From: a bacterium
GTDB lineage: Bacteria; Zhuqueibacterota; Zhuqueibacteria; Residuimicrobiales; Krinioviventaceae
Assembly (NCBI GenBank): GCA_963674595.2
Contig: CAXXFV010000027.1
Location: 1-64,000 of the forward strand
DNA: 64,000 bases
Direction: 5' to 3'
Shown here: positions 1,193 through 22,134 of the stretch, piece after piece
How positions within the stretch are numbered: the first letter of the stretch is position 1
How the letters are laid out: every line of letters starts with the position of its first letter
The notes under the pieces: model-generated
Seen by the model: the letters and a program-made list of their open reading frames with translations, nothing else
Told to the model about the DNA's origin: nothing
The model's database searches: none
Program-made: the position numbers and the translations under genes

Positions 1193-1200
1193 GATTGATT

Positions 1201-4700: not shown

Positions 4701-4716
4701 TGGCGTGATTTTTGAT
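4701..4716 (+). promoter_or_regulatory. Candidate sigma54 (-24/-12) promoter
   Basis: TGGCGTGATTTTTGAT versus consensus TGGCACG-N4-TTGCW, correct spacing, GA variant at -12; lies just after the sigma54 activator gene and ~40 bp before ATG 4759. Confidence 0.6.
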
Positions 4717-4758
4717 ATAACCAAGCCAAAAATGTTGTATAAAATCTGTAAGGCAATA

Positions 4759-5150: not shown

Positions 5151-5597
5151 ATGGCCAAGACAGCAAGAATTTTAATTGTAGACGACGATCCTGATTTTGT
5201 AGAGATTAACAAGACCATTTTAGAAAGCCATGGTTACACCGTTGAAACGGCTGACAGACCGGCTAACGCATGGGAAAAGGTTAAAAATTGGATGCCGGAC
5301 CTTATTTGTCTTGATGTGATGATGCCCTCCGGTACAGAAGGTTTTCATTTTGCTTATAAGGTAAGGAGTGATACAGAAACCCGTGATATTCCAATTTTAA
5401 TGATTACATCCATTCATGACCATAGTGATTTTCAGTTTTCACCTGATCAGGATGGAGATTTTTTACCGGTTGAATATTTTTTAGAAAAACCAATAAAATC
5501 TGATGTACTTATCTCTCATGTGGAATTGCTGCTTGAAAGCGGACGTGCAAAGAAAGAAACGAAACCTGATAAAGGTATTGGCTTAAAAAGAGATTAA
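5151..5597 (+). CDS. Single-domain response regulator
   Basis: ILIVDDDPDF, LDVMMP, MITS, LEKP; RBS GGAGG. Confidence 0.9.
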   Translation: MAKTARILIVDDDPDFVEINKTILESHGYTVETADRPANAWEKVKNWMPDLICLDVMMPSGTEGFHFAYKVRSDTETRDIPILMITSIHDHSDFQFSPDQDGDFLPVEYFLEKPIKSDVLISHVELLLESGRAKKETKPDKGIGLKRD

Positions 5598-5634: not shown

Positions 5635-6021
5635 ATGGAAGCAAAACGAATATTATTAGCGGATGATGATCCGGATTTCCTCGAAATAAATAGAACGATT
5701 TTAGAAGCAAATGGATATTTAGTTGAAGAGGCTTCTACTTCTGCAGAAGCTCTCGAAAAACTTGAAACACATGAATTTGATCTGATTATTCTGGATCTCA
5801 TGATGGAAGAACGCGATTCGGGCTTTACAATCGCCTATGCTGTGCGTGAAAACGAACGGTTGCGTCACCTTCCGATTTTAATGTTAACTTCGGCAGAAGA
5901 AAAAACAGGATTTTCATTCAAGTTTTCTAATGATAAGGAATGGATGAAAGTTGATGATTTTGCTGCAAAACCCTTAAAACCAGCAGAACTTGTTATGCGA
6001 ATTGAAAAACTCTTAAAATGA
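5635..6021 (+). CDS. Single-domain response regulator
   Basis: ILLADDDPDF, LDLMME, MLTS, AKP. Confidence 0.9.
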   Translation: MEAKRILLADDDPDFLEINRTILEANGYLVEEASTSAEALEKLETHEFDLIILDLMMEERDSGFTIAYAVRENERLRHLPILMLTSAEEKTGFSFKFSNDKEWMKVDDFAAKPLKPAELVMRIEKLLK

Positions 6022-7549: not shown

Positions 7550-8014
7550 ATGGACAGTAGAGAATTATATGAAAGACATCCTTCATCTGAAGCATCTGCA
7601 CTTATACCTTTTTTACAAGATTTGCAGGAATTATATGGGTACCTTCCAGAAGATGAAATGCGAAAAGTTGCCAACCATCTAAGATTGCCTTTCAGTCGCG
7701 TTTATGGTGTTGCTACATTTTATAACCAATTCCGGTTGCAACCATTGGGAAAATATGTTATCAAAGTATGCCGTGGTACAGCCTGTCACGTCAAAGGATC
7801 ATTTGATTTGCTAACAACTCTTGAAAATGAGCTCGGAATTAAAGCCGGCGAAACAACCAAAGATTTAAAATTTACTATAGAAACTGTTGCTTGCATAGGA
7901 GCTTGCAGTATGGCTCCCGTTATTGCTATAAATGATGAATTTTACGGTGGATTAACCGTAAAATCTTTGCAAAAGCTGCTGAAAACGATTGATAAAAACG
8001 GAGAAAAGGAGTAG
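7550..8014 (+). CDS. hydC: NuoE-like [2Fe-2S] subunit of multimeric [FeFe]-hydrogenase 1 (HydC)
   Basis: GVATFY, CRGTACH, ACIGACSMAP. Confidence 0.88.
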   Translation: MDSRELYERHPSSEASALIPFLQDLQELYGYLPEDEMRKVANHLRLPFSRVYGVATFYNQFRLQPLGKYVIKVCRGTACHVKGSFDLLTTLENELGIKAGETTKDLKFTIETVACIGACSMAPVIAINDEFYGGLTVKSLQKLLKTIDKNGEKE

Positions 8015-8017
8015 AGA

Positions 8018-10024
8018 GTGGCTAATTTAAACTCTTTGAAAAATATATTTACAAATTGTTGGCATAGTTCCGACAATCCATGTCAATTTTTTATAGAATG
8101 TTTGAATGATGGGCAGAAATGTCATCAATCTCAAACAACAAAATCACGATTAGATGAGTTCAAGAATACCATATTATTTGAAAATAATACCAAACCTGTC
8201 ATTTTAATAGGTATGGGAACGTGTGGACTTGCCAACGGGGCAAAAAAAGTTTATGATAGTTTTAAAAACGAACTGAATGCCAGAAATATAGATGCAACTT
8301 TGGTTTCAACCGGCTGTGTTGGATATTGTGCCAAAGAAGTTATTGTTGATATAAAACTTGCAGGAAAACCAAGAATAAGTTATTGTAAAGTTGTGCCTCA
8401 AGATGTTCCTGAGTTAATTGAATCAACACTCATTAAAGGACAGGTATACACAGATAAATTATTAGGAATTTATAATGCCAATGGTGAAAATTCCGACTGG
8501 AAAGGCCAACAAGATATTCAGGAAATTCCATTTTTCAAAAAACAGCACAAAGTTGTTTTAGCAAATTGTGGTATTATTGATCCTGAAAACATTGATCAAT
8601 ACATTGCTAAAGGTGGCTATGTTGCTCTTTCCAAGTCTGTTAATAAAATGAAACCGGCAGAAGTTATTCAAGAAGTTATTGATGCCGGGCTACGCGGAAG
8701 AGGCGGCGGCGGCTTTCCGACAGGTTTAAAATGGCAATTAGCACATAAAGTTGAAAGTGATATTAAATATCTGGTATGTAACGCTGACGAAGGTGATCCG
8801 GGAGCCTTTATGGACCGGGCCGTGCTTGAAGGTGATCCGCATCGATTGGTTGAAGGAATGACAATCGCTGCTTATGCCATTGGCGCCAGTGTTGGATATG
8901 TTTACTGCCGTGCTGAATATCCTCTGGCCATCAAAAGATTGGAAAAAACAATTAAAGATGCTAAAGAATATGGCCTTTTAGGTGAAAATATCCTGGGCAG
9001 TGGATTTAATTTTGAATTAAAAATCAAAAAAGGAGCCGGTGCTTTTGTTTGTGGGGAAGAAACAGCACTGTTGCATTCTATTGAAGGTAAACGTGGAATG
9101 CCGAGACCACGACCGCCTTATCCATCTGATTCCGGTTTATGGGGTAAACCGACCGTCATTAACAATGTTGAAACATTCTCAAATGTTTCCAATATTTTAG
9201 CAAACGGTGCCGAATGGTATTCAAGTATTGGAACAGAAAATTCTAAAGGAACCAAAATTTTTGCATTGTCCGGTAAAGTAACAAATGTTGGACTGGTTGA
9301 AGTTCCTATGGGTATTTCACTCAGAGAAGTCGTTTTTGATATTGGCGGCGGTATTCCTGATAACAAAGCATTTAAAGCTGTTCAGATAGGCGGCCCTTCA
9401 GGCGGTGCTTTACCTGAACAGGTTATCGATACAAAAATAGATTATGAATCCTTGAAAAAAGTTGGTGCAATGATGGGTTCAGGTGGTCTTGTTGTTATGG
9501 ATGAGACAACCTGTATGGTAGACCTTGCCAAATACTTTATGACATTTATCCAATCGGAATCATGCGGTAAATGTATTCCTTGTCGTGAAGGTACAAAACG
9601 TTTACTGGAAATTTTGGAACGATTAACTACCAGTCATCGAAGTGAAAATTCCGCAACGGAATCGTTGCTCCGATTTCAGGGAATGGTCTATATGGAACGC
9701 CTTGCCGAAGTTATTGCCAATACATCACTGTGTGGGTTGGGACAGACAGCGGCAAATCCTGTATTGAGTACGTTACGTTATTTCCGTGACGAATATGAAG
9801 CACATCTTTATGATCGTAAATGTCCGGCTGGTGAATGTCGTGAGCTGTTAACATTTCATATTGATACGGATAAATGTACTGGATGCCATCTTTGTGCTAA
9901 AAAATGTCCTGAAAATGCCATTATCGGTGAAGTTAAAAAAGCACACTATATTATTGATGATAAATGTGTCCGTTGTGATCAGTGTAGAGCCAATTGTAAA
10001 TTTGATGCGATTTATGTTGATTAA
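8018..10024 (+). CDS. hydB: NuoF-like FMN/NADH subunit of hydrogenase 1 (HydB), bifurcating-type signature
   Basis: GRGGGGFPTG, ADEGDPGAFMDR, GAGAFVCGEET, GGPSGG, SCGKCIPCREG, C-terminal 2x[4Fe-4S] (CTGCHLCAKKCP, CVRCDQCRANC). Confidence 0.9.
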   Translation: MANLNSLKNIFTNCWHSSDNPCQFFIECLNDGQKCHQSQTTKSRLDEFKNTILFENNTKPVILIGMGTCGLANGAKKVYDSFKNELNARNIDATLVSTGCVGYCAKEVIVDIKLAGKPRISYCKVVPQDVPELIESTLIKGQVYTDKLLGIYNANGENSDWKGQQDIQEIPFFKKQHKVVLANCGIIDPENIDQYIAKGGYVALSKSVNKMKPAEVIQEVIDAGLRGRGGGGFPTGLKWQLAHKVESDIKYLVCNADEGDPGAFMDRAVLEGDPHRLVEGMTIAAYAIGASVGYVYCRAEYPLAIKRLEKTIKDAKEYGLLGENILGSGFNFELKIKKGAGAFVCGEETALLHSIEGKRGMPRPRPPYPSDSGLWGKPTVINNVETFSNVSNILANGAEWYSSIGTENSKGTKIFALSGKVTNVGLVEVPMGISLREVVFDIGGGIPDNKAFKAVQIGGPSGGALPEQVIDTKIDYESLKKVGAMMGSGGLVVMDETTCMVDLAKYFMTFIQSESCGKCIPCREGTKRLLEILERLTTSHRSENSATESLLRFQGMVYMERLAEVIANTSLCGLGQTAANPVLSTLRYFRDEYEAHLYDRKCPAGECRELLTFHIDTDKCTGCHLCAKKCPENAIIGEVKKAHYIIDDKCVRCDQCRANCKFDAIYVD

Positions 10025-10041
10025 TATATTAGAGGAATAGA

Positions 10042-11751
10042 ATGAAAATAACGTTAAATGATAAAGAATGCTGGGCAAATCCAGGTGAAACAATATTAAA
10101 AGTTGCTGAACGTGAAGGCGTAAAAATACCAACTTTATGTTATTTAAAAGACTTTTCACCAACGGGTTCATGCCGAATTTGTGTTGTTGATGTAGAAGGT
10201 CAAAGAAGTCTTGTACCTGCTTGTGCTTTTCCTGTTTTTGAAGGAATGAAAGTTCAGACAAATTCTCAAAAAGTACGACGCTCAAGAAAAACAATAATTG
10301 AATTGCTGATTGCCAATCACCCTCAGGATTGTCTGGTATGTGTTCGTAGTGGTAACTGTGAACTGCAAAGTCTTGCACAGGAATATGATATTGCCAGTTT
10401 TCGATATTCTGGTGAAAGAAAACATAACAAACTTGATATTGCCAGTCCGGCAATTGAACGTGACCCAGAAAAATGTATTTTATGTGGACGATGTGTTCGA
10501 ATCTGTCATGAAGTTCAAAAGGTTGGTGCTATTGATTTTGCCAATCGTGGATTTAAAAGTGTTGTAACACCTGCTTTTGACCAGAGTCTCAATACCATGT
10601 CATGTGTTTATTGTGGTCAGTGTATTACAGCATGTCCGGTTGGCGCTTTAAGAGAAAAAAGCCATTTAAAAATGGTATGGGAAGCCATTAATAATAAAGA
10701 TAAATATGTTGTTGTACAGGTTGCACCTGCTGTTCGGGTTGCTCTTGGTGAAGAATTTGGTATGGAAGCGGGATCTGTTGTTACCGGTAAAATTGTTTCT
10801 GCTCTTCGCCGCATAGGGTTTGACCAGGTATTTGACACCAACTTTAGCGCAGATTTAACAATCATTGAAGAAGCAACCGAGCTTCTCGGCCGTTTAAACA
10901 ATGGCGGCACATTGCCGATGATGACTTCATGCAGCCCGGGTTGGATCAAATATATTGAACATTATTATCCGGATTTATTGGATAATTTATCAACCTGTAA
11001 ATCTCCGCACGAAATGCAGGGTGCTTTAATAAAATCCTATTATGCTGAAAAGATGAATATTGATCCTGAAAAAATATTCGTTGTATCGATAATGCCATGT
11101 ACTGCTAAAAAATTTGAAGCCCAACGGCCGGAACTTGGTGATAACTATCAGGATGTTGACGCTGTTTTAACAACACGTGAATTAGGGCGTATGATTAAAA
11201 CGGCCGGAATCGAATTCAACAAATTACCGGACGAGTATTTTGATGATCCTATGGGAGAATCAACCGGCGCTGCTGTTATCTTTGGAAGTGCAGGCGGTGT
11301 TATGGAAGCAGCCATTCGAACAGCTTATTTCACCTTGACCGGCAAAGAAATGGATAATATAGATTTTAAAAGTGTCCGCGGTCTGGACGGCGTTAAAGAT
11401 GCCTCTGTTGAAATAAATGGTATTAAACTTAATATTGCCGCAGTTAATGGATTGAGCAATATGAGCAAAATTCTTGATGATATTCGCAACGGTGAAACCC
11501 AATACCATTTTATTGAAGTCATGGCTTGTCCTGGCGGTTGTATTAATGGTGGTGGACAACCATTGCCTGCAAGTCAGGAAAAAACAGAAAAACGTATGCA
11601 CGCCATTTATAAAATAGACCGTTCATTGCCCAAACGTGCTTCACATCAGAATGAATCCGTTCAAAAATTGTATAAAGAATTTTTAGGCGAACCGAATGGT
11701 CATAAAGCGCATGAATTATTGCACACACACTATGTGAAGAGAGAAATATAA
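10042..11751 (+). CDS. hydA: Group A [FeFe]-hydrogenase catalytic subunit 1 (HydA)
   Basis: [2Fe-2S] motif, His-ligated HxxxCxxCxxxxxC, 2x[4Fe-4S]; H-cluster motifs TSCSPGW, MPCTAKKFE, EVMACPGGCINGGGQP; ends AHELLHT. Confidence 0.95.
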   Translation: MKITLNDKECWANPGETILKVAEREGVKIPTLCYLKDFSPTGSCRICVVDVEGQRSLVPACAFPVFEGMKVQTNSQKVRRSRKTIIELLIANHPQDCLVCVRSGNCELQSLAQEYDIASFRYSGERKHNKLDIASPAIERDPEKCILCGRCVRICHEVQKVGAIDFANRGFKSVVTPAFDQSLNTMSCVYCGQCITACPVGALREKSHLKMVWEAINNKDKYVVVQVAPAVRVALGEEFGMEAGSVVTGKIVSALRRIGFDQVFDTNFSADLTIIEEATELLGRLNNGGTLPMMTSCSPGWIKYIEHYYPDLLDNLSTCKSPHEMQGALIKSYYAEKMNIDPEKIFVVSIMPCTAKKFEAQRPELGDNYQDVDAVLTTRELGRMIKTAGIEFNKLPDEYFDDPMGESTGAAVIFGSAGGVMEAAIRTAYFTLTGKEMDNIDFKSVRGLDGVKDASVEINGIKLNIAAVNGLSNMSKILDDIRNGETQYHFIEVMACPGGCINGGGQPLPASQEKTEKRMHAIYKIDRSLPKRASHQNESVQKLYKEFLGEPNGHKAHELLHTHYVKREI

Positions 11752-11753
11752 TA

Positions 11754-13796
11754 ATGCCTGTTGTTTGGACAATTGAAGAAAAATGTAAGCGCTGTTATAG
11801 CTGCATACGTGAATGTCCTGCAAAGGCTATTAAAGTTGAAAAAGGCCAGGCAAAGGTAATTCAGGATCGTTGTATAGGATGCGGACATTGTGTCAGTGTT
11901 TGTTCTCAAAAGGCAAAAGCTGTGCTCAGTGGAATTGACGCAACATTATCCTTTTTAAATTCGGATTCGCCGACATTTGCTATGTTAGCTCCGGCTTTTC
12001 CGGCAGCCTTTCCGGATGTAGACCCTGGTTTAGTGGTTGGTGCTTTAAAAGCTTTAGGTTTTTCAAAAGTAGTTGAAGTAGCATTTGGTGCTGATTTGAT
12101 AAATCGAAAATATAAAGCCCTGGTATCCCGAAATGAAGAAAAGGATCCGCACAAAACCAATGAACCTGTCATTACCAGTTCCTGCCCGGCAATTTGTGAA
12201 TATATCCAAAAATATGTGCCGGAATTAATATCACATCTGGCACCTATTGTTTCTCCTATGGTAGCAATGGGACGTGTCGTTAAAATGTTTTATGGCGACC
12301 ATAATAAAGTTGTGTTTATTGGCCCATGCTCTGCTAAAAAAGTAGAAATGCTTGATGAAGAAGTTAAGGATTCGGTGGATGAAGTATTGACATTTACAGA
12401 GATTGAAAAAATCTTTGTAAAAAAGAATATACAGTTTGACCAAATTCAAAAAATGCCTTTTGATCCGCCGCACCCATATTTAGGACGATTGTATCCAATT
12501 TCAGGAGGATTATTGAGAAGTGCCGGCCTTCCTTTTGATATTATGAATAATGATATTATTTTAACGGAAGGCAAACAACGTATTCTCAACCTGCTTGAAT
12601 GTATTCATAACCATGAAATTGATGCAAAAATGGTTGACGTGCTTTTCTGTGAAGGGTGTATTAATGGTCCCTATATGAATCACTCTATTAATTATTTTTC
12701 ACGTAAACAAAAAATAGTTAAATATAGCGATTCCAAAAGACCACTTACTAACTATCCTGAATGGGAAAAGAATATTAAAAAATGTACTGACTTGCCGTTA
12801 ACACGAAAGTTTAAATTTCAGGCTATTTCTAAAATTGAACCGTCTGATTCGGAGATTCGGCGAATATTATTAAAGATAAATAAAAGAACCGAATCAGATG
12901 AATTGAATTGCGGCGCTTGTGGGTATGCCTCCTGTAGAGAATACGCAACAGCCGTTTTTCAAGGTTTGGCTGAAGAAGAAATGTGTCTGCCTTTTCTTGT
13001 AGACAAACAGGAAAAAATGCAAATTGAACTTCAGAGCTCCTTTAAAGAGTTGTCCGAAACCCAGGAACAACTCATTCATCATGAAAAATTGGCATCTATC
13101 GGACAATTGGCAGCCGGCGTTGCTCATGAAGTTAATAACCCACTCGGGTCGATTATGCTTTATGCGCATTTGGTGCTGCAAAAGCTGGGACAAGATGATC
13201 CAAATGCAAGCGACCTTTATTTTATAATGGAGGAAGCCAAAAGGTGCCAAAAAATTGTTGCAGGACTTTTAAACTTTGCGCGGCAAGGACATTTAAAGTT
13301 TAATAAACAAGATATTGGTAAAATAATTGAAAAAATTATCAACACAGTTGAAAAACAGAAACTGTTTGAAAATATTAAAATACAGAACCAGCTCGATGCT
13401 AAATTACCGCAAATAGATGTGGATAGAGACCAAATACATCAGGTTTTTCTTAATTTGATTATAAACGCTGCCGAAGCTATGCAGGATAATAATTTAAATA
13501 AAAAACTTGAAATTGAATCGGTTATCGATACTGAAACCAATCGGTTGTTTTTGCATTTTAGAGACAATGGTGTCGGAATCCCCGCAGAAAATATGGGTAA
13601 ACTTTTCACACCTTTTTTCACAACCAAACAAATTGGTGAAGGTACGGGTTTAGGTCTTCCCATTGCCTATGGTATCGTTAAAATGCATCGTGGCAATATT
13701 TCTGTAAAAAGTGAAATTGGCAAAGGTACAACCTTTACGGTTGAATTACCCATGGTATCAGAAACTTTTGCCAGCCAAAATTCAGTATTTAATTGA
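11754..13796 (+). CDS. Sensory (group C-like) [FeFe]-hydrogenase domain fused to histidine kinase, copy 2
   Basis: CKRCYSCIRECP, CIGCGHCVSVC; TSSCP, GPCSAKKVE, LFCEGCINGP; CGACGYASC; H-box AHEVNNPL; GEGTGLGL. Confidence 0.88.
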   Translation: MPVVWTIEEKCKRCYSCIRECPAKAIKVEKGQAKVIQDRCIGCGHCVSVCSQKAKAVLSGIDATLSFLNSDSPTFAMLAPAFPAAFPDVDPGLVVGALKALGFSKVVEVAFGADLINRKYKALVSRNEEKDPHKTNEPVITSSCPAICEYIQKYVPELISHLAPIVSPMVAMGRVVKMFYGDHNKVVFIGPCSAKKVEMLDEEVKDSVDEVLTFTEIEKIFVKKNIQFDQIQKMPFDPPHPYLGRLYPISGGLLRSAGLPFDIMNNDIILTEGKQRILNLLECIHNHEIDAKMVDVLFCEGCINGPYMNHSINYFSRKQKIVKYSDSKRPLTNYPEWEKNIKKCTDLPLTRKFKFQAISKIEPSDSEIRRILLKINKRTESDELNCGACGYASCREYATAVFQGLAEEEMCLPFLVDKQEKMQIELQSSFKELSETQEQLIHHEKLASIGQLAAGVAHEVNNPLGSIMLYAHLVLQKLGQDDPNASDLYFIMEEAKRCQKIVAGLLNFARQGHLKFNKQDIGKIIEKIINTVEKQKLFENIKIQNQLDAKLPQIDVDRDQIHQVFLNLIINAAEAMQDNNLNKKLEIESVIDTETNRLFLHFRDNGVGIPAENMGKLFTPFFTTKQIGEGTGLGLPIAYGIVKMHRGNISVKSEIGKGTTFTVELPMVSETFASQNSVFN

Positions 13797-13811
13797 ATAA
13801 CAGGTTAAAAA

Positions 13812-14207
13812 ATGAAAAAGAAAATACTGCTTGTCGATGATGATACAGATTTTGTAGCAATTAATCGTGATTTTTTGATTAGTAACGGATTTCAAGTCCT
13901 GGTAGCTTATAACGGACAAGAAGCTGAACAAGTATTGGCTGAAGAAATACCGGATTTAATGATATTAGATGTTATGATGAGTGAAGTAGGAGAGGGTTTT
14001 GAGGTGGCGCGAAACGTTCGGGCCGATGAGAGAACAGCACACATTCCTATTCTCATGCTTACCTCTGTCAATCAGGAACATGATTTTAATTTAACAATTG
14101 GGCCTGATGCCAACTGGAACCCGGTTGACCAGTTTGTTGAAAAACCCATTGAACATAAGCAATTACTCGAAAAAGTATATGAACTGCTCAAGATAGAAAA
14201 GGAATAA
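13812..14207 (+). CDS. Single-domain response regulator
   Basis: ILLVDDD, LDVMMS, MLTS, EKP. Confidence 0.9.
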   Translation: MKKKILLVDDDTDFVAINRDFLISNGFQVLVAYNGQEAEQVLAEEIPDLMILDVMMSEVGEGFEVARNVRADERTAHIPILMLTSVNQEHDFNLTIGPDANWNPVDQFVEKPIEHKQLLEKVYELLKIEKE

Positions 14208-14210
14208 GGA

Positions 14211-14609
14211 ATGAATAAGAAAATATTAATGGTTGATGACGATATTGATTTGATAGATATTTACAAGCCGGTTTTGGAAAATGCCGGTTATACCGTTAAA
14301 GCAGCCTATGACAGCAACGAAGGTTTTCAGGCTTTTCAGGACTTTAATCCGGATGTTGTATTGGTTGATTTGGCAATGGAGCATTTTGATTCCGGTTTTG
14401 TTCTTTGCCATAAAATTAAAAAACTTGAAAAATCCAAAAATATACCGGTTATCATTATGACAGCCGCCGGACACGAAACCGGAATTCGTTTTACAACACA
14501 AACAAATGAAGAAAGAAACTGGATTAAAGCTGACGATTATCTGGAAAAACCTATTTCTCCAAGAGATTTATTGCAATATTTGAATGAAAAAGTATTCAAG
14601 GCCAAATGA
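14211..14609 (+). CDS. Single-domain response regulator
   Basis: ILMVDDD, VDLAME, IMTA, LEKP. Confidence 0.9.
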   Translation: MNKKILMVDDDIDLIDIYKPVLENAGYTVKAAYDSNEGFQAFQDFNPDVVLVDLAMEHFDSGFVLCHKIKKLEKSKNIPVIIMTAAGHETGIRFTTQTNEERNWIKADDYLEKPISPRDLLQYLNEKVFKAK

Positions 14610-16114
14610 TAGTTGAAAATCGTCAAATACTTGTCATTGATGATGAACGAGGAATGCGTGAGGGTATAAAACGCATTCTGGAGCTTCAGGGTCACCATGT
14701 AGATACTGCTGATAACGGAACGCTTGGAATAGAGCTTGGTTCCTTTAAAGAATATGATCTCTATTTCATTGATTTAAAAATGCCGGATATTGAAGGAACT
14801 CAGGTTTTACGTGAGATAAAATTATGCTATCCGGAAGCGATCTGCATAATTGTAACAGCTTTTGCATCGATTGAAACCGCAGTAACAACGACCCGTTTAG
14901 GTGCTTATCAGTATATTTCCAAGCCCTTTACTCCGGAAGAGCTTAATATTCTGGTTAACCGCGCTTTGGAACGCAGATGGTACATTCTTGAAGCTCGCCG
15001 ACTAAAAGAAGAACAACAAAGTCGTCTTTTAGAGGTTGCAAATGAAAAGTCCAGAATGCGTACAATTATCAATGCACTGGATGACGGTATTCTTGTAGTA
15101 AATCAAAATGGTGAAATTGTTCTATTTAATCCTGGATTTTTGAAATTACTCGATATTAAAAATGAACTTAAAATAGGTGAAACCATTTATCCATTTTTGC
15201 CGGCAGAACTTTCAAATCAAATCCAGGAAATACTGTTTAACAGAGGTGTTTTTAAGGCTATTAAACAGGAACTTGTAGTAAAACCGCCTGCTGAGATGGT
15301 AATTATGGCCAATACGACACCTATTTTAAATAATAATAATGAACTTGTTGGGCTCGTTTCAGTGTTGCGCGACATTACCGAACTTAAACAAGTTGATGTT
15401 CTTAAATCACAATTTGTTAATATGGCTGCCCATGAATTGAAATCACCTTTATCGGCAGTTCAGGGCTACCTGGAAATGATTGCAGACCATACACTTGGTG
15501 ATGCTCCTGAAATATATGACGGCTATGTTAACCGTTCTCTTGAAAGGACTAAATCATTGGTTGCTTTAATCAATGATTTGCTCAATATCTCTCGTCTTGA
15601 TGCAAATAAAGTTCGAAGAGATATAGTATCTCTTAATTTATCTGATATAATTTTTGATGAGTTAATTAATTTAAAAGATAAATTTTTCAATAAAAATTTG
15701 TATATTGAACTCTCTATTGATAATATGCTTTTTGTTGAGGCAGATGAACAAGAAGTCCGTAGAGTTTTCAAAAACCTGATTTCCAATGCTATAAAATACA
15801 ATCGTGACGACGGTCAGATTTTTATTCGCACCAAAATACTTGCTCATTATTTTTTAATTGAAATAAGAGACACCGGCATTGGTCTGTCACCTGAAGAAAA
15901 AGATCGACTCTTTGAAGAGTTTTTTCGCGCAAAAAACAAGTACACAAGGCGTATTCCTGGTACGGGTTTAGGGCTCAGTATTGTTAAAAAAATATTGGAT
16001 ACTTATGCAGGAAAAATTGAGATAGAAAGTACGTTTGAACAAGGTTCAGTTTTTTTTGTATCATGGCCGAAACCGGTTAAGTCAGCAACACCTGTTAATA
16101 CCCTTAATTCATAA
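14606..16114 (+). CDS. Hybrid sensor kinase REC-PAS-HisKA-HATPase, copy 2
   Basis: REC; PAS (LDDGILVVNQNGEIVLFNP...RDITE); H-box AHELKSP; NAIKY; GTGLGL. Confidence 0.92.
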   Translation: MIVENRQILVIDDERGMREGIKRILELQGHHVDTADNGTLGIELGSFKEYDLYFIDLKMPDIEGTQVLREIKLCYPEAICIIVTAFASIETAVTTTRLGAYQYISKPFTPEELNILVNRALERRWYILEARRLKEEQQSRLLEVANEKSRMRTIINALDDGILVVNQNGEIVLFNPGFLKLLDIKNELKIGETIYPFLPAELSNQIQEILFNRGVFKAIKQELVVKPPAEMVIMANTTPILNNNNELVGLVSVLRDITELKQVDVLKSQFVNMAAHELKSPLSAVQGYLEMIADHTLGDAPEIYDGYVNRSLERTKSLVALINDLLNISRLDANKVRRDIVSLNLSDIIFDELINLKDKFFNKNLYIELSIDNMLFVEADEQEVRRVFKNLISNAIKYNRDDGQIFIRTKILAHYFLIEIRDTGIGLSPEEKDRLFEEFFRAKNKYTRRIPGTGLGLSIVKKILDTYAGKIEIESTFEQGSVFFVSWPKPVKSATPVNTLNS

Positions 16115-16143
16115 ACATTTTTATGCCATAAAAAGGATGATAT

Positions 16144-16485
16144 ATGCAAATTCAAGACATCGTTACGAAACTTGGTCTCCGAATTTTGAGTGGGGAAAAC
16201 AATCTGACCAAAGATGTTACTTGCGGATATATTTCCGACATTTTAAGCGATGTGATGGCCAAATCTGCAAAGGGAGCAATATGGGTAACCAACCAAACCC
16301 ATGAAAATATAATTGCCATTGTTTTTTTTAAAAATTTGGCTGGTGTAATTTTACCTGATAATTTGCAGCCTGAAGAATCTGCTTTACAAAAAGCTAAGGA
16401 AAAATCGATACCGATCTTTGTATCCGAATATTCAGCATTCGATATTGCCGGTAAACTTTATGAACTGGGTATCCGGGGGAAATAG
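16144..16485 (+). CDS. DRTGG-domain-like protein (hydrogenase-associated)
   Basis: GYISDILSDVM, WVTNQTHENIIA, AFDIAGKLYELG pattern typical of small DRTGG proteins found in Hnd/Hyd operons. Confidence 0.75.
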   Translation: MQIQDIVTKLGLRILSGENNLTKDVTCGYISDILSDVMAKSAKGAIWVTNQTHENIIAIVFFKNLAGVILPDNLQPEESALQKAKEKSIPIFVSEYSAFDIAGKLYELGIRGK

Positions 16486-16488
16486 TGA

Positions 16489-17235
16489 ATGCTTTCATTG
16501 TACAAAGCAGACCTTCATATACATTCTGTTTTATCAGCCTGTGCTGAACTGAGTATGGGCCCCAAGGACATTGTTGCAAAAGCCCTGGAAAAAAAACTTG
16601 ATATTATTGCGATAACAGATCATAATTCTGCTGAAAATGCAGGAGCTGTGATTGATTGTGCCAAGGATACTAAACTTTTCGTTATTCCCGGTATAGAGAT
16701 TTATACAAGAGAAGAAGTCCATGTTATTGCTCTGTTTGAATCAGTTGAATCAGCACAACAAATGGAACAATTCATCTATTCACATTTACCGGAAGGTGAT
16801 TATGATGAATCATATTTTGGACAACAAATAGTATGCGATAAAAATCAAAATGTAATTGATTATAACACGAAAATGCTGCCGTTTCCTGTTAATTGCTCGC
16901 TTCATGATGTTGCACATCAGGTGGAACAATTAAACGGAATTTTTTATCCGGCCCACATAAACCGCAAGGCAAACAGTATTCTCCGTGTGCTGGGATTTAT
17001 CCCGGATAATCTGCCGATAAAGGCCCTGGAAATTACAAAACCCTATAAAGAAGCAGTTGAAGAATTACGTTTTTTAAAAAATACAAAATATAGCATCCTT
17101 GTTTCATCCGATGCTCATGATATAAACGATGTGGGCAAAAATTCTACATTGATGAAACTGGAAGAGCCTTCATTTTCTGAAATTAAATTGGCTATTGAAC
17201 AAAAACAAGACCGGACTATTATAAACGAGGAATGA
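16489..17235 (+). CDS. PHP-domain phosphoesterase
   Basis: DLHIHSVLSAC, AITDHN, GIEI, AHINR, SSDAH metal-binding motifs. Confidence 0.88.
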   Translation: MLSLYKADLHIHSVLSACAELSMGPKDIVAKALEKKLDIIAITDHNSAENAGAVIDCAKDTKLFVIPGIEIYTREEVHVIALFESVESAQQMEQFIYSHLPEGDYDESYFGQQIVCDKNQNVIDYNTKMLPFPVNCSLHDVAHQVEQLNGIFYPAHINRKANSILRVLGFIPDNLPIKALEITKPYKEAVEELRFLKNTKYSILVSSDAHDINDVGKNSTLMKLEEPSFSEIKLAIEQKQDRTIINEE

Positions 17236-17780
17236 GAGAACTATCCTTACATATTCTCGATATTGCTACTAATTCTGTTGAAGCAGAAGCGACAAGAGTC
17301 ATTTTATTTATTAAAGAATCTGAAAAAGAGAATCTGTTTCAGATCATAGTAAGAGACAATGGTCGCGGTATGAGCCCGGAATTGCTAAAAAAAGTAATAG
17401 ACCCATTTACTACTTCCCGAACAACACGTAAAGTGGGAATGGGCCTGCCATTAATGAAACTTGCTGCCGAACAGGCAGGAGGTTCTTTGAAGATTAATTC
17501 TGAATTGGGTAAAGGCACCCAGTTATGTGTGACTTTACAAAAAAATAACCTAAACCGCGCGCCGCTTGGTGATATTGGCGATACAGTTGTAAACCTGATA
17601 ATAGGTGCACTTGACGTTCATTTTTGTTATTTGCACCAAACCGATATAGGATGTTTTCGTTTTGATTCTTTTTGGATTTTTGCCGAAATGGCAAATCAAA
17701 ATCTAAATATATATGAAATGGTTGAACCTGCAAAAAAATACATAAATACAGGTTTAACAAATATTAAGTCAGTTGGCTAA
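17232..17780 (+). CDS. Histidine-kinase-like ATPase (HATPase_c only), hydrogenase-associated
   Basis: MRELSLHILDIATNS, DNGRGM, DPFTTSRTTRKVGMGL, RAPLGD; no sensor or HisKA domain. Confidence 0.82.
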   Translation: MRELSLHILDIATNSVEAEATRVILFIKESEKENLFQIIVRDNGRGMSPELLKKVIDPFTTSRTTRKVGMGLPLMKLAAEQAGGSLKINSELGKGTQLCVTLQKNNLNRAPLGDIGDTVVNLIIGALDVHFCYLHQTDIGCFRFDSFWIFAEMANQNLNIYEMVEPAKKYINTGLTNIKSVG

Positions 17781-17840
17781 ATATTAACATAATTAATTAT
17801 AAACCAATAAAACTAAATAACCATTTAGGAGGAACCAAAC

Positions 17841-18203
17841 GTGAAAACATTAGCGGATCTCCGAGCCATTAAGGAGAAAGCGAAAAAAGAGATGGCAGCA
17901 CGAGAAGAGACCGCCAAATACCGCATAATAGTTGCAATGGGCACATGCGGAATTGCGGCAGGTGCTCGAAATGTAATGAGTGCAATTCTTGATGAAATTA
18001 ACAAACGAAATGTAAGTGATACAGTTGTAACGCAAACAGGTTGTTTGGGATATTGTGATCAGGAACCTTTGGTGCAGGTAGCTCAACCGGACAAAACGAT
18101 CATTACTTATGGTAAAGTTTCACCTGAAACAGCCAGACAGATCGTTGCGGAACACATTATAAATAATAATGTTTTGTCAGGACATGTTTTTAAACAGGAT
18201 TAA
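17841..18203 (+). CDS. Thioredoxin-like [2Fe-2S] ferredoxin subunit (HndB/HydD-like)
   Basis: MGTCGIAAGA, TGCLGYCDQEP; GTG start with AGGAGG. Confidence 0.85.
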   Translation: MKTLADLRAIKEKAKKEMAAREETAKYRIIVAMGTCGIAAGARNVMSAILDEINKRNVSDTVVTQTGCLGYCDQEPLVQVAQPDKTIITYGKVSPETARQIVAEHIINNNVLSGHVFKQD

Positions 18204-18252
18204 TCAAAAGAAAATTTAGTAATAACCAATAGAAGATATACATTGGAGGTCT

Positions 18253-18732
18253 ATGATGCCAAATCTGGATCGAGTGGATGAAATTGTACAAAATTATAAT
18301 GACACAAAGACACCACTCATTTACATTTTAAAAGATGTACAGAACGAATACGGATATCTCTCAGAAGATGTTTTAACAAAAGTTGCTTCGGCAACCAATA
18401 TACCACTTTCTGAAATATATGGTGTTGCAACATTCTACAGCTTGTTTACTATAAATGAAAAAGGTAAAAATATCGTTAGATGTTGTAATAATGCTCCTTG
18501 TCATGTTAATGGTTCCAAGGAAGTGCTTGCAAAAGTTCAAGAGTATCTCGGTGTAAATGTTGGTGAAACAACAAATGATAAAGCATTTACATTAGAATTT
18601 ACCAGTTGTCTGGGTCTGTGTGCCGTAGCCCCTGTTATGATGGTTAATGACAATGTTTATGGTAATCTTACTCCTGAAAAAGCAGTTTCCATTTTGAAGG
18701 ACTATAAAATGAAAGGATCATCTAATGAATAG
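18253..18732 (+). CDS. hydC: NuoE-like [2Fe-2S] subunit of hydrogenase 2 (HydC/HndA-like)
   Basis: GVATFYS, CNNAPCH, SCLGLCAVAP. Confidence 0.85.
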   Translation: MMPNLDRVDEIVQNYNDTKTPLIYILKDVQNEYGYLSEDVLTKVASATNIPLSEIYGVATFYSLFTINEKGKNIVRCCNNAPCHVNGSKEVLAKVQEYLGVNVGETTNDKAFTLEFTSCLGLCAVAPVMMVNDNVYGNLTPEKAVSILKDYKMKGSSNE

Positions 18733-20359
18733 ATTACATATACTCATCGCCATGGATCCCCATACAATTGCTCAGGGAGCGCGTTCTGTTAAAGATGCGC
18801 TTGTTAAAGACCTGGCCCTGGCAGGTTTAACTGAAGAAGTTAAAGTCGTTGAAACCGGAAGTTTGGGTATTTATAACAAAGGTGTTGTCTTTGTTGTTTT
18901 TCCTGATGCTGTTTACTATGCCGGTGTCAAGGTTGAAGATGTTGCTGAAATTGTTTCCGAACATTTAGTTAAAGGTCGTCCGGTTGAAAGATTGCAATAC
19001 AAAGAATTTGCCGGTGCAGAAAAAGTGACTGAAAAAGATCAGGCTGCACGATTTGGCAAACAAAAACGTGTTGTATTAAAAAATGCCGGTATTATTGATC
19101 CTGAAAGTATTGAAGAATATATTGCTCATGACGGGTATGAAGCACTTGGTAAAGCCCTGACTGAAATGACACCTGAAAAAGTTATGCAGGAAGTAACAGA
19201 ATCCGGTATGCAGGGACGCGGCGGCGCATTTTTTCCAACCGGATTAAAATGGAGCTTTGCAGCAAAAGAAAAATCCGAAATTAAATATATCGTTTGTAAT
19301 GCCGATGAAGGCGAACCAGGTACATTTAAAGATCGTTTAATTCTTGAAGGTGATCCTCATGCTGTTATTGAAGGTATGGCCCTGGCCGGTTATGCTGTAG
19401 GTGCAAGCATGGGTTATGTATATATTCGTGGTGAATATAAAATGTCAATTGATCGTATGCAGCGTGCAATTGATCAGGCAAAAGAAAAAGGTTTATTGGG
19501 TGAAGATATTTTTGGAAGCAAGTTCTCCTTTAATCTTGAAATTCGTGAAGGTGCCGGTGCCTATATTTGTGGCGAAGAAACCGCACTTATTGAATCAATA
19601 GAAGGCAAACGTGGTGAACCTCGTGATAAACCGCCATTTCCTCCGTCAGAAGGTTTATGGGGTAAACCAACAATTGTTAACAATGTAGAAACACTTGCCA
19701 ATGTACCGCAAATAATTTTAAACAGTGCTGATTGGTACAAAGACATGGGCACTGAAAAAAGCCCTGGTACTAAAGTATTTACAATGGTAGGAAATATCAA
19801 TAATCCTGGATTAATTGAAGTGCCAATGGGAATTACTCTCCGTGAAATTATCTATGACATCGGTCATGGTATTCCAAATGGAAAAGGATTTAAAATGGCG
19901 CAAATGGGTGGTACAACAGGTGGTATTTTAACAGAAGAACACCTGGATATGCCGTTGGCTATTGAAAACCTGCGCGAAATCGGATCCGGCCTGGGATCAG
20001 GCGCTTTGCTTGTTGTTGATGATTCCCAGTGTGTTGTTGATCTGGTTAAAAACTTTGTTGAATTTTTTAATCATGAATCTTGCGGCAAATGTACATTATG
20101 TCGTGAAGGAACCGGTCGTTTACTAGAGTTGTTGGATAAAATATCTGACGGCGAAGGTAAAGAAGGTGACCTGGAATTGATTGAAACACTTTCTTCAACA
20201 ATGATGAAAGGCGCCTTTTGTGGTTTGGGTCAGGCTGCGCCAGTGCCAATTCTTGGATGTTTGAAATATTTCCGACAGGAATTTGCTTCTCATATTGATG
20301 AAAAATCTTGTCAGGCTGGTGTTTGTGAATTTAAATCTGTTGAAGCGGAAATTGCTTAA
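18725..20359 (+). CDS. hydB: NuoF-like FMN/NADH subunit of hydrogenase 2, non-bifurcating-type signature
   Basis: GRGGAFFPTG, ADEGEPGTFKDR, GAGAYICGEET, GGTTGG, SCGKCTLCREG; no C-terminal 2x[4Fe-4S] domain. Confidence 0.88.
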   Translation: MNRLHILIAMDPHTIAQGARSVKDALVKDLALAGLTEEVKVVETGSLGIYNKGVVFVVFPDAVYYAGVKVEDVAEIVSEHLVKGRPVERLQYKEFAGAEKVTEKDQAARFGKQKRVVLKNAGIIDPESIEEYIAHDGYEALGKALTEMTPEKVMQEVTESGMQGRGGAFFPTGLKWSFAAKEKSEIKYIVCNADEGEPGTFKDRLILEGDPHAVIEGMALAGYAVGASMGYVYIRGEYKMSIDRMQRAIDQAKEKGLLGEDIFGSKFSFNLEIREGAGAYICGEETALIESIEGKRGEPRDKPPFPPSEGLWGKPTIVNNVETLANVPQIILNSADWYKDMGTEKSPGTKVFTMVGNINNPGLIEVPMGITLREIIYDIGHGIPNGKGFKMAQMGGTTGGILTEEHLDMPLAIENLREIGSGLGSGALLVVDDSQCVVDLVKNFVEFFNHESCGKCTLCREGTGRLLELLDKISDGEGKEGDLELIETLSSTMMKGAFCGLGQAAPVPILGCLKYFRQEFASHIDEKSCQAGVCEFKSVEAEIA

Positions 20360-20400
20360 GGCATTTCCCGTATAAATTGAGTTTTCATGGAGGAATTAAA

Positions 20401-22134
20401 GTGAATAATATCACGGTAACCATAGATGGAAAAAATATTTCAGTTCCTGTCGGAACAACTGTTTTAGAGGCAGCTGAAAAACTGGGCATCAAAGTCCCCC
20501 GGTTGTGTTATCATCCGGATTTGCCGCCTGTTTCAGCCTGCCGTCTTTGTGTTGTTGAAATTGAAGGGGATCGTCTCCTGCGTACGTCTTGTTCCTGGAA
20601 ATGCCAGGATGGTATGAAAATTTCAACACGATCAAAAACCGTACGTGAGTCTCGACGAATGGCAATGGAATTACTGCTGTCAAGACACCCAATGAAATGT
20701 ACGGAATGTGTTAGAAACGGATCATGTGAATTGCGTGATGTAGCTGACCAACTTGGTATTCGCGAAAACAGTTTTGAATACAATGAAAGAAAAGGTACAC
20801 TTGATCTTTCCAGTGCAGCTATCGTTCGTGATCCTTCAAAGTGTATTTTATGTCGCCGCTGTGTTCAGACATGTGAGCTGGTCCAGAGCGTCAGCGCTAT
20901 CGGTCTTGAAGGCAGAGGATACGATGTTTGGGTAGACACCCCATTTGGTAAAGGTATTGGCGATATTGCCTGTGTATCCTGTGGTCAGTGTATTGATCGT
21001 TGTCCGGTTGGTGCATTGTATGAAAACAGCCATATTCAGCGTGTTTGGGATGCTCTTGATGATCCTAAAAAACATGTTGTTGTTCAAACAGCACCGGCTG
21101 TTCGCGCATCCATTGGTGAAGAATTCGGCCTTCCTGCCGGTTCTTTGGTAACCAAAAAGATGGTTGCTGCGCTGCGTATGATGGGTTTTGATAAAGTATT
21201 TGATACGGATTTTACAGCCGATTTAACAATTCTCGAAGAAGGCCATGAATTGTTGGGACGTATTAATAATGGTGGAACACTTCCAATGTTGACATCCTGC
21301 AGCCCGGGATGGATCAATTTTATCGAACATTTTTATCCGCAATTATTACCACATGTATCTTCATGTAAATCTCCACAACAAATGTTTGGTGCTTTGGCAA
21401 AAACATATTATGCTGAAAAATTTGGCATTAAACCGGAAGATATTTATGTTGTATCTATCATGCCTTGTACAGCTAAAAAATATGAAGCTGGTCGTGATGA
21501 AATGTCGGACAGTGGCTTCCAGGATGTTGATGCCGTATTAACAACGCGTGAAGCCGGTACGATGATCAAACAATTGGGTATTGATTTTGAAAACTTGCCT
21601 GATGAAAAGTTTGATGAACCTTTGGGTATTTCCACAGGTGCGGCTGTTATTTTTGGAAACACCGGTGGTGTTATGGAAGCTGCATTAAGAACGGTTTATG
21701 AAGTTCTGACCAAAAAACCATTGGATGATATCGAAATTAAAGCAGTACGTGGATTAGAAGGTATTAAAGAAGCAGAAGTTGAAATTGCCGGTATAAAAGT
21801 TAAAGCCGCTGTTGCTAACGGCCTTGCAAATGCCCGCAAGTTGATGGATAAAATTGTAGCCGGTGAAGCCGATTATCACTTTATTGAAATCATGGCTTGT
21901 CCTGGTGGATGTATAGGTGGTGGCGGTCAGCCAATACCGACTTCAACCTTAATCCGACAAAAACGTTCAGAGGCAATTTATGAAGAGGATCGTGGTTTGG
22001 AACTTCGAAAATCTCATGAAAATCCTGCTGTTATTAAACTGTATGAAGAATTTTTGGGTGAACCAAACGGTCATAAATCTCATGAATTACTTCACACAAA
22101 ATATACTCCGAAAACAGTATATAAAACTGCTTAA
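20401..22134 (+). CDS. hydA: Group A [FeFe]-hydrogenase catalytic subunit 2 (HydA/HndD-like)
   Basis: Same FeS motif set as copy 1; TSCSPGW, MPCTAKKYE, EIMACPGGCIGGGGQP. GTG start 20401 after GGAGG. Confidence 0.95.
   Translation: MNNITVTIDGKNISVPVGTTVLEAAEKLGIKVPRLCYHPDLPPVSACRLCVVEIEGDRLLRTSCSWKCQDGMKISTRSKTVRESRRMAMELLLSRHPMKCTECVRNGSCELRDVADQLGIRENSFEYNERKGTLDLSSAAIVRDPSKCILCRRCVQTCELVQSVSAIGLEGRGYDVWVDTPFGKGIGDIACVSCGQCIDRCPVGALYENSHIQRVWDALDDPKKHVVVQTAPAVRASIGEEFGLPAGSLVTKKMVAALRMMGFDKVFDTDFTADLTILEEGHELLGRINNGGTLPMLTSCSPGWINFIEHFYPQLLPHVSSCKSPQQMFGALAKTYYAEKFGIKPEDIYVVSIMPCTAKKYEAGRDEMSDSGFQDVDAVLTTREAGTMIKQLGIDFENLPDEKFDEPLGISTGAAVIFGNTGGVMEAALRTVYEVLTKKPLDDIEIKAVRGLEGIKEAEVEIAGIKVKAAVANGLANARKLMDKIVAGEADYHFIEIMACPGGCIGGGGQPIPTSTLIRQKRSEAIYEEDRGLELRKSHENPAVIKLYEEFLGEPNGHKSHELLHTKYTPKTVYKTA

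Follow-up and report, generated by a model that had tools for sequence, protein, structure and literature searches.

Organization of the locus

The analysed DNA (the window) is a stretch of 64,000 nucleotides at the start of contig C27 of a bacterial genome (G000; assembly GCA_963674595.2), which comprises 6.6 Mb in 37 contigs with an estimated contamination of 5%. Between bases 18 and 22134 of the window, all genes called in the open reading frame (ORF) list were located on the + strand, with short gaps between them. This co-directional block of 22 kb encodes two complete HydABC-type [FeFe]-hydrogenases, each with its own HydA (Table 1). The flavoprotein subunit of the first enzyme, HydB1, belongs to the bifurcating (Bfu) type, and that of the second one, HydB2, has the residues and the domain content ascribed to non-bifurcating enzymes. 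The nearest named homologues of HydB2 were labelled as candidate division KSB1 or Calditrichaeota.

Table 1. Genes of the hydrogenase block, with positions in the window and the basis of their assignment.
Gene or product	Position	Strand	Features
HydS-HK1	1189-3228	+	Pfam Fer4 dicluster, Fe_hyd_lg_C, FeS (PF04060), HisKA, HATPase_c
NtrC-type sigma-54-dependent response regulator	3167-4540	+	Pfam Response_reg, Sigma54_activat, AAA_lid_14, HTH_8; syntenic in G052
Three single-domain response regulators	4705-5133, 5151-5597, 5635-6021	+	Pfam Response_reg (first gene: weak match, 23.3 bits, under the curated cut-off)
Hybrid receiver-PAS-histidine kinase 1	6034-7509	+	Pfam Response_reg, PAS, HisKA, HATPase_c; syntenic in G052
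HydC1, NuoE-like [2Fe-2S] subunit	7550-8014	+	Pfam 2Fe-2S_thioredx, E = 4e-53
HydB1, bifurcating-type (Bfu) flavoprotein subunit	8018-10024	+	668 aa; Complex1_51K, NADH_4Fe-4S, Fer4 dicluster
HydA1, catalytic [FeFe]-hydrogenase subunit	10042-11751	+	Pfam Fer2_4, NADH-G_4Fe-4S_3, Fer4, Fe_hyd_lg_C, Fe_hyd_SSU
HydS-HK2, H2-sensor-type kinase between the two operons	11754-13796	+	Domain set as HydS-HK1
Two single-domain response regulators	13812-14207, 14211-14609	+	Pfam Response_reg; syntenic in G052
Hybrid receiver-PAS-histidine kinase 2	14606-16114	+	Pfam; 64% identity to G052 counterpart
DRTGG protein	16144-16485	+	Pfam; syntenic in G052
PHP phosphoesterase	16489-17235	+	Pfam; syntenic in G052
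HATPase_c-only protein	17232-17780	+	Pfam; syntenic in G052
HydD-like small thioredoxin-like protein	17841-18203	+	Pfam 2Fe-2S_thioredx partial match, E = 1.4e-7
HydC2, NuoE-like [2Fe-2S] subunit	18253-18732	+	Pfam 2Fe-2S_thioredx, E = 1.1e-51
HydB2, non-bifurcating-type flavoprotein subunit	18725-20359	+	544 aa; T/K/Y, GGTTG; no C-terminal dicluster domain
HydA2, catalytic [FeFe]-hydrogenase subunit	20377-22134	+	Pfam domains as HydA1

HydB1 is a bifurcating-type subunit

Residues distinguishing the two types of beta subunit were proposed by Losey 2020 (PMC7311640). In bifurcating subunits, the positions equivalent to residues 232 and 234 of T. maritima HydB are occupied by A or E and by M, respectively, F lies by the FMN, and a GGPSG motif and extra FeS domains are present, whereas the non-bifurcating ones have T or S, then K, S or A, and Y at these places, no GGPSG and fewer FeS domains. 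The residue sets cited as reported discriminators in the initial annotation of the window agree with this proposal. According to Furlan 2022 (PMC9499530), the C-terminal domain with clusters B3/B4 occurs in all characterised bifurcating HydB proteins and in none of the non-bifurcating ones, and, according to Schut 2022 (PMC9304861), non-bifurcating homologues are devoid of clusters B2-B5. In the structural literature (Schut 2022, Furlan 2022 and Zheng & Huang 2024), coupling to ferredoxin is linked to this B3/B4 domain.

The HydB1 gene begins with a GTG codon 4 nt past the HydC1 stop. Its product contains the motifs ADEGDPGAFM (aa 256-265), GAGAFVCGEE (aa 339-348) and GGPSG (aa 458-462), and the residues A263, M265 and F343 together with GGPSG correspond to the bifurcating set. 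At the C-terminus the pattern CxxCxxCxxxC occurs twice (aa 620-631 and 650-661; eight Cys), and Pfam Fer4 families were matched at aa 614-665. The motifs and the C-terminal 2x[4Fe-4S] domain noted for HydB1 in the initial annotation were thus all recovered in the sequence and by Pfam. The Cys of the N3-type cluster are also present. At the B2/Zn hinge site, the ligands of which were listed for B2 by Feng 2022 (PMC8880783) and which was modelled as Zn by Furlan 2022, C, H, C and C were found in the columns aligned to A. mobile C438, H525, C531 and C536. The N-terminal [2Fe-2S] (B5) domain has three Cys (69, 100 and 104), with Gly in place of the first canonical Cys, and the same three-Cys pattern recurs in the alignment in the solved chain 8oh5_B.

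The best solved relatives of HydB1 were bifurcating HydB chains, 7t2r_B (760 bits) and 7q4v_B (759 bits). HydB1 aligned end to end with the chains of Bfu HydABC (PDB 7q4v/8a5e, 8a6t and 7p5h) and of NiFe-HydABCSL (7t2r), sharing with them A/M/F, GGPSG, the B2/Zn ligands and the B3/B4 Cys, and differed from them in having three instead of four canonical N-terminal Cys and an additional N-terminal extension of 60 aa. The alignment of HydB2 with the same chains reached only the hinge. We take 7q4v/8a5e to be from A. woodii and 8a6t from T. kivui. The structure 7p5h was assigned to T. maritima through the text of Furlan 2022, which names 7P8N, and 7t2r to A. mobile through its residue numbering, which agrees with that of Feng 2022.

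The N-terminal extension of HydB1 (aa 1-60; window 8018-8200) contains C14, H16, C22, C28, C35 and H36. An extra metal site in this Cys/His-rich segment was considered and rejected, as only one of the four Cys is conserved in the orthologue from the complete genome G052; judging from this comparison, the extension probably forms no metal site.

HydC1 has four Cys at positions 74, 79, 115 and 119 (NuoE-type, C1 [2Fe-2S] cluster), and the H-cluster motifs of HydA1 are TSCSPGW, MPCTAKK and EVMACPGGCINGGGQ. The P1 motif TSCSPGW is shared by HydA1, HydA2 and 7q4v_A, consistent with the statement of Zheng & Huang 2024 (PMC11406978) that Ser is common at that P1 position.

HydB2 has the residues and domain content of non-bifurcating subunits

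HydB2 contains the motifs ADEGEPGTFK (aa 193-202), GAGAYICGEE (aa 276-285) and GGTTG (aa 395-399). T200, mapped via A202 of 7t2r_B, is the Thr/Ser expected at T. maritima position 232, and K202 is the Lys/Ser/Ala expected at position 234. Y280 replaces Phe beside the FMN site (GAGAY/F), and in the SLBB region GGTTG is found instead of GGPSG. No Fer4 domain was detected in HydB2 by Pfam, and the protein ends 10 residues past C534, so the motifs and the stop before the 2x[4Fe-4S] domain reported in the initial annotation were all reproduced.

The Cys of the N3-type cluster are retained in HydB2. Residue 3 is the start of its alignment to the N-terminal [2Fe-2S] domain in solved HydB chains, and the protein has a thioredoxin-like domain there, in which the four [2Fe-2S] Cys columns read A, T, S and Y. 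On this alignment, the N-terminal [2Fe-2S] cluster site of HydB2 is gone, a loss of all four Cys that the initial annotation had missed. The B2/Zn ligands, mapped through the 7t2r_B alignment and the ligand list of Feng 2022, are all kept (C436, H523, C529 and C534), and the semi-conserved fifth position is S474.

HydC2 keeps the Cys at positions 78, 83, 119 and 123. HydA2 has intact H-cluster motifs, and its best solved relative was 7q4v_A (709 bits). Three Cys (36, 68 and 72) are found in the HydD-like protein, arranged as in the N-terminal domain of HydB1. The gaps of operon 2, 18-60 bp long, leave no room for a separate ferredoxin-like ORF. An origin of operon 2 by recent tandem duplication was rejected, as the identities between the subunits are low (about 49% for HydB1/HydB2, 57% for HydA1/HydA2 and 40% for HydC1/HydC2) and, beyond its own clade, HydB2 is most closely related not to HydB1 but to proteins of about 540 aa that share about 60% identity with it.

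Comparison of HydB2 with described systems

In the initial annotation HydB2 was likened to S. wolfei Hyd1B. The two share T/K/Y, the absence of GGPSG and of the C-terminal 2x[4Fe-4S] domain, and a HydA and a NuoE-like partner. The likeness does not extend to the architecture, since the members of the HydB2 family are about 540 aa long and carry an N-terminal domain, which is thioredoxin-like and, in HydB2 itself, cluster-less, whereas Hyd1B-type proteins are NuoF-sized (about 407 aa, within a range of about 402-434 aa) and lack such a domain. Furthermore, the B2/Zn-site residues present in HydB2 are absent from L019, a 407-aa protein adjoining HydA in a Syntrophomonadaceae metagenome-assembled genome (MAG), which was used together with L020 as a stand-in for S. 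wolfei Hyd1B.

In the rows of Tables S1 and S3 of Losey 2020, bacterial predicted non-bifurcating subunits span 402-434 aa, and the N. ovalis protein is a 1198-aa fusion. The exception in length is the 520-aa HymB-like protein of Ca. Cloacimonas acidaminovorans (YP_001741249), the single predicted non-bifurcating entry in the 'group 3 tetrameric' of these tables. Compared through the published tables alone, it resembles HydB2 in its length, in T/K/Y, in having GGAAG and not GGPSG, and in a tetrameric-type operon with a HydD-like gene. As this only counterpart in length in the tables is, like HydB2, uncharacterised, the function of HydB2 is an extrapolation.

Another described counterpart is the 'sub-type II' BfuB of Zheng & Huang 2024, which does not have B3, B4 and B5 and is read there as non-bifurcating; nearly all sub-type II strains also possess a bifurcating sub-type. 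HydB2 matches sub-type II BfuABC by its feature pattern (no B3/B4/B5) and by its co-occurrence with HydB1 and with HydB3, a further bifurcating-type subunit encoded elsewhere in the genome. The description of sub-type II is in silico only, and the text of that paper dealing with it mentions no arrangement in which a bifurcating operon lies in tandem with it and a sensor kinase stands in between. For the sub-type II of Hydrogenedentota, the nearest relatives named there are from Acidobacteriota, Actinomycetota and Planctomycetota. Thus, both the interpretive rule and the co-occurrence of the two types are already in print, and Losey 2020 also notes genomes with both types and the hypothesis that their use depends on the H2 level.

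Sites connected with bifurcation are eroded in the HydB2 family

To evaluate the site pattern across the family, 120 homologues listed for HydB2 were surveyed. The 86 closest showed 64-82% identity and came, where named, from KSB1/Calditrichaeota; the remaining 34 showed 59-62% identity and came, where named, from Firmicutes, Bacillota or Bacteroidota. Among these listed matches, T, K and Y occupied the three sites in all 86 closest and in all 34 more distant proteins, and the C-terminal Cys-rich domain was found in none of either group (0/86 and 0/34). As T/K/Y was present in 120/120 and the Cys-rich C-terminal extension in 0/120 of the listed homologues, the residue pattern of HydB2 is not due to chance. 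For comparison, A, M and F with GGPSG were found in 11/11 bifurcating-type rows.

The two groups of listed matches differed in other sites. The N-terminal [2Fe-2S] Cys were present in 0/86 of the closest proteins, while at each of the four columns, which the 34 more distant proteins themselves defined, at least 80% of those proteins had Cys. The full set of B2/Zn ligands was found in 34/34 of the more distant proteins and in 44/86 of the closest ones, with incomplete sets in the HydB2 orthologues of the genomes G052 and G147. The Cys of the N3 cluster were retained in 84/86 of the closest homologues, the other two being gapped there. These patterns indicate that sites tied to bifurcation are decaying in the HydB2 lineage and that the NADH-FMN-N3 core is held, which provides independent support for an enzyme not dependent on ferredoxin.

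The survey bears on another explanation, namely that HydA2B2C2 is still coupled to ferredoxin, or bifurcates, by a different route, with docking near C1 and B2/Zn or through the HydD-like protein. Consistent with this are the retained [2Fe-2S] Cys of HydC2 and the retained C436, H523, C529 and C534 of HydB2, as well as the three-Cys HydD-like protein encoded just upstream; proteins that pair bifurcating-type residues with a short HydB ORF, described below, point the same way. However, the residues of the NADH/FMN site are NuoF-like in 120/120 of the listed homologues, and the B2/Zn ligands are lost in 42/86 of the closest listed ones, including the G052 orthologue, so this site cannot be essential to the HydB2 family. 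In addition, no ferredoxin-like ORF fits the gaps of operon 2. HydD was also reported to lie outside the A. mobile holoenzyme; the legend to Fig. 1 of Schut 2022 places both the 'hisK' and 'hydD' genes of such operons outside it. Coupling by another route therefore appears improbable, and we regard the ferredoxin independence of HydA2B2C2, deduced from its site pattern, as quite probable.

Some of the homologues bear the automatic name 'NADP-reducing hydrogenase subunit HndC', which would suit a Hnd-like NADP-linked hydrogenase with HydB2 using NADPH. Such specificity is highly doubtful, as the nucleotide-site residues are those common to NADH-specific NuoF/Nqo1.

Two HydB-like ORFs from Elusimicrobia/Caldisericota MAG contigs (L015:5857-7524 and L018:5827-7512) were only 555-561 aa long and had the bifurcating-type A, M, F, GGPSG and B2/Zn ligands but lacked, within that ORF, a C-terminal dicluster domain; HydA was located roughly another 3 kb downstream. 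The link between residue type and domain content is thus imperfect.

Phylogenetic position of HydB2

The tree was built from 57 hand-chosen rows and 517 columns and comprised 18 rows of the HydB2 family, nine short rows labelled T/K/Y, 13 NuoF-like, six Fds/Hox-like and 11 bifurcating-type rows. It took 38 of the 80 contig loci and excluded L021, L034 and L071, which were oddly long or without motifs. The labels of the short rows are inexact, since two of the nine (L033 and L054) proved to be without T/K. A HydA H-domain was found in the fetched stretch for five tree loci: L019, L028 (partial match), L032, L033 and L054.

In a quick tree, the bifurcating clade was the sister group of the HydB2 family. 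This placement was not relied on, because a constrained tree, in which HydB2 was grouped with the short type of Syntrophomonadaceae/Gelria, was better by 7.2 log-likelihood units (approximately unbiased (AU) test, p = 0.68) and a careful tree left the node open. In the careful tree, the cluster-less KSB1-type clade (100/99) was nested within the HydB2 family (94/71). The clade with A/M residues (96/90) contained all 11 bifurcating rows along with L054 and two HoxF-like rows, with HydB2 outside it. T/K/Y in HydB2 therefore represents the NuoF-like state and not a reversal inside a sampled bifurcating lineage.

Conservation of the tandem

HydB2 was searched for in 151 genomes of the phylum (G000 included), and a frame with at least 65% identity was regarded as an orthologue. 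Orthologues were found in all 16 genomes of the same family and in all 20 other genomes of the same order, with 75-82% identity. Beyond the order, they were found in four of the 114 remaining genomes (G010, G042, G135 and G147); G088 and G144 count only among the non-order genomes without an orthologue. The presence of orthologues with such identity in 36/36 genomes of the order indicates that the HydB2 gene is under selection.

This result argues against operon 2 being a decaying, functionless remnant of a bifurcating hydrogenase, an explanation to which the stepwise loss of cofactor sites would lend itself. The reading frames are uninterrupted, none of the FMN, N3-cluster or H-cluster motifs has been lost, and more than 100 related proteins among the matches listed have the same architecture. 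Together with the orthologues found throughout the order, this leaves the remnant explanation with hardly any credibility.

Among the matches listed, at least 18 of the 36 genomes of the order also encode, 10.4-12.1 kb from HydB2 and on its contig, a HydB1-like frame of 653-689 aa with 48-52% identity to HydB2; this is a lower bound, also in view of the fragmentation of many assemblies. In G052, whose genome is complete, the gene order equals that of the window from the sigma-54 regulator through HydA2, with distinct counterparts for only two of the three receiver genes located ahead of receiver-PAS-kinase 1.

One sensor kinase belongs to the conserved unit

HydS-HK1 and HydS-HK2, both fusions of a sensory-type [FeFe]-hydrogenase with a histidine kinase, are 51% identical. 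Their P1 motifs, read by eye, are SSSCP and TSSCP, respectively, and the pattern Cx2Cx4Cx16C occurs at aa 375-400 of the former and aa 386-411 of the latter. With the putative group C/D sensory [FeFe]-hydrogenases described by Land 2020 (TmHydS, TamHydS), they share the N-terminal 2x[4Fe-4S] domain and the position beside group A genes. They also share with the sensory M2e/M2f class of that paper a TSCCP motif without its first Cys (Ser) and the C-terminal Cx2Cx4Cx16C. Unlike in TmHydS and TamHydS, the sensor domain is fused straight to HisKA-HATPase_c, and no PAS domain was found in it by Pfam.

In the initial annotation, the presence of two enzymes was proposed to explain the dual sensors. 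In G052, the one relative aligned gene by gene, only the sensor between the operons is syntenic: the HydS-HK2 orthologue lies between HydA1 and the second regulator block. A search with HydS-HK1 in 41 genomes of the order further undercut this proposal. The best matches (51-63% identity) were located off the tandem in the three relatives with long contigs, namely in G052 (2.48 versus 3.32 Mb, about 0.84 Mb apart), in G098 (0.41 versus 1.15 Mb, about 0.75 Mb apart) and in G111 (contig C5, with the tandem on C2). Weaker matches (45-49% identity) were found on the tandem contig between both HydB genes in 18 genomes, the one in G052 being the HydS-HK2 orthologue. With the best matches away from the tandem and the weaker ones inside it, the conserved unit has one sensor between the operons, and the flanking 'dual sensor' layout is, on these matches, particular to this genome or its near kin. 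As two more sensor-type proteins are encoded elsewhere in the genome, H2 sensing is clearly elaborate here, and the sensors do not pair off one to one with the enzymes.

Tandem HydS-HK paralogues about 2.5 kb apart were observed off the hydrogenase tandem in G115:C687, G004:C65, G131:C14, G134:C4, G080:C2 and G085:C3, among others; each of these genomes had 2-4 sensor-kinase matches. In the source genome, a 563-aa protein with Fer4, Fe_hyd_lg_C, PF04060 FeS and MCP domains is encoded on the - strand of contig C23 (about 589.9-591.6 kb; L004:6928-8619) and is a candidate H2 chemoreceptor.

Proposed roles of the two enzymes

Additional genes of electron metabolism were found in the source genome. 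It encodes a Rnf cluster, a PFOR-type frame of 1190 aa, three further POR_N matches well over the cut-off and HydF. With these genes, the cell is expected to form NADH as well as reduced ferredoxin and to convert one into the other.

For the tandem, we consider it reasonably probable that HydA1B1C1 is a confurcating Bfu-type enzyme and HydA2B2C2 a ferredoxin-free NADH enzyme, with the HydS-HK2 relay setting their expression. HydA1B1C1, like the third HydABC of the genome, would confurcate NADH and reduced ferredoxin to H2 and would be workable at higher H2. In HydA2B2C2, electrons would pass from NADH to the FMN, then to the N3-type [4Fe-4S] cluster of HydB2, the clusters of HydA2 and the H-cluster, with no ferredoxin involved. 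This enzyme would be reversible: H2 would be formed from NADH as long as H2 is very low, and at high H2 the enzyme would use H2 to reduce NAD+. If both enzymes worked at once, the H2 formed by enzyme 1 could be re-oxidised to NADH by enzyme 2, and the energy of ferredoxin would be short-circuited. Because co-expression at high H2 would dissipate this energy, a sensor-driven choice between the enzymes makes sense, and HydS-HK2 with the receiver/kinase relay between the operons may make this choice.

The direction of HydA2B2C2 in vivo may also be the opposite one, with the enzyme serving mainly for H2 uptake as a soluble NAD+-reducing hydrogenase when H2 is plentiful. Those non-bifurcating enzymes that have been characterised work in both directions and use H2 to reduce NAD+ (Losey 2020), a reaction favourable at all but very low H2 (Schut 2022). 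In the other direction, measurements on S. aciditrophicus HydAB showed that H2 can reach no more than 2.2-40.2 Pa when the NADH/NAD+ ratio is 1-5 (Losey 2020); above that level, enzyme 2 would run in reverse. A role in uptake would also suit the H2 sensor kinase encoded directly upstream and a large (6.6 Mb), versatile genome with Rnf and a complex-I-like module. On the other hand, uptake is compatible with the proposed pair of enzymes, as the same enzyme would reverse with the H2 level, and KSB1 in methanogenic reactors were reported to express H2-forming amino-acid catabolism (Nobu 2020). We regard a mainly H2-consuming role as rather unlikely.

Several points weigh against the proposed division of labour between HydA1B1C1 and HydA2B2C2. 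The residue criteria are correlations across 17 enzymes and not mechanistic proof. The non-bifurcating enzymes tested in published accounts are S. wolfei Hyd1ABC, S. aciditrophicus HydAB and the fungal Hyd+NuoEF, none of which is of the type of about 540 aa. HydB2 and HydC2 keep the B2/Zn ligands and the C1 cluster, parts of the proposed low-potential branch. In the careful tree, an open fork leads to the HydB2 family, to L033, to the type of Syntrophomonadaceae/Gelria (100/100) and to the bifurcating/Fds/Hox group, and by the AU test a joint clade of HydB2 and the short type is neither rejected nor demonstrated. With regard to regulation, the scans of the locus for promoters and regulator-binding sites found none: the strict -24/-12 sigma-54 pattern gave 0 matches and the pattern with two mismatches 19 (19.6 expected), none at a useful intergenic position, and the sigma-70 and terminator scans were near chance (88 found versus 72.4 expected and 18 versus 15.2, respectively).

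More tentatively, the tandem might be a conserved H2-gated unit with two gears, in which the sensory hydrogenase-kinase between the operons would respond to H2 and shift the cell between the confurcating and the ferredoxin-independent enzyme, avoiding a futile H2 cycle. The HydB2 lineage might also record how non-bifurcating NADH hydrogenases evolved from Bfu-like ancestors by a stepwise loss of cofactor sites, with B3/B4 absent family-wide, B5 lost in the KSB1-type clade and B2/Zn lost in about half of this clade. The general idea of paired enzymes is known and the ecological reading is an existing hypothesis; new here are the order-wide conserved tandem with its intervening sensor kinase and the graded loss of Bfu cofactor sites. 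The capacity to dispose of NADH as H2 without ferredoxin decides how sensitive a fermentation is to H2 and hence its dependence on H2-consuming partners. If the proposal holds, the two options are combined in one regulated unit throughout an order of the uncultured KSB1 phylum, which would fit the expression of H2-sensitive and H2-tolerant amino-acid pathways by KSB1 in methanogenic reactors (Nobu 2020). The family of about 540 aa is large, and its natural variation at B5 and B2/Zn offers a test series for the cofactor sites that bifurcation needs.

Other hydrogenase and electron-carrier genes in the genome

The source genome contained eight Fe_hyd_lg_C and six Complex1_51K matches. Among the latter, only HydB1, HydB2 and HydB3 were of the true NuoF/HydB type and the other three were RnfC-like; no NuoF-type genes besides the HydB genes were found in the genome. 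Further hydrogenases included a third HydABC, which is of the bifurcating type, and a monomeric HydA, alongside two additional sensor-type proteins.

The third HydABC is encoded on the - strand of contig C34 (L001:6853-11323) in the gene order B-A-C. HydB3 is a bifurcating-type protein of 727 aa with two N-terminal thioredoxin-like domains, and the enzyme resembles the 'sub-type III' described by Zheng & Huang 2024. This short contig (11.6 kb) also carries HypF, HypD and a HypE-like gene.

The cluster on the - strand of contig C7 (L003:7117-12629) encodes a monomeric ferredoxin-type HydA of 483 aa, a SpoIIE/PP2C phosphatase, a HydS-like sensor of 574 aa without a kinase and a Rex-like regulator (CoA_binding and Put_DNA-bind_N). 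In the Rnf cluster on contig C8, RnfD (L002:10456-11494) is split into two overlapping ORFs of 109 and 258 aa, matching profile positions 2-99 and 96-296, respectively, possibly because of a frameshift or a sequencing error.

The sole NuoD/[NiFe] large-subunit-like locus found was a NiFeSe_Hases match on contig C6 (375688-376650), located in a frame of 560 aa that contains a single in-frame TGA. KSB1 is reportedly mentioned in a 2026 paper dealing with group 4 [NiFe] hydrogenases that contain selenocysteine.

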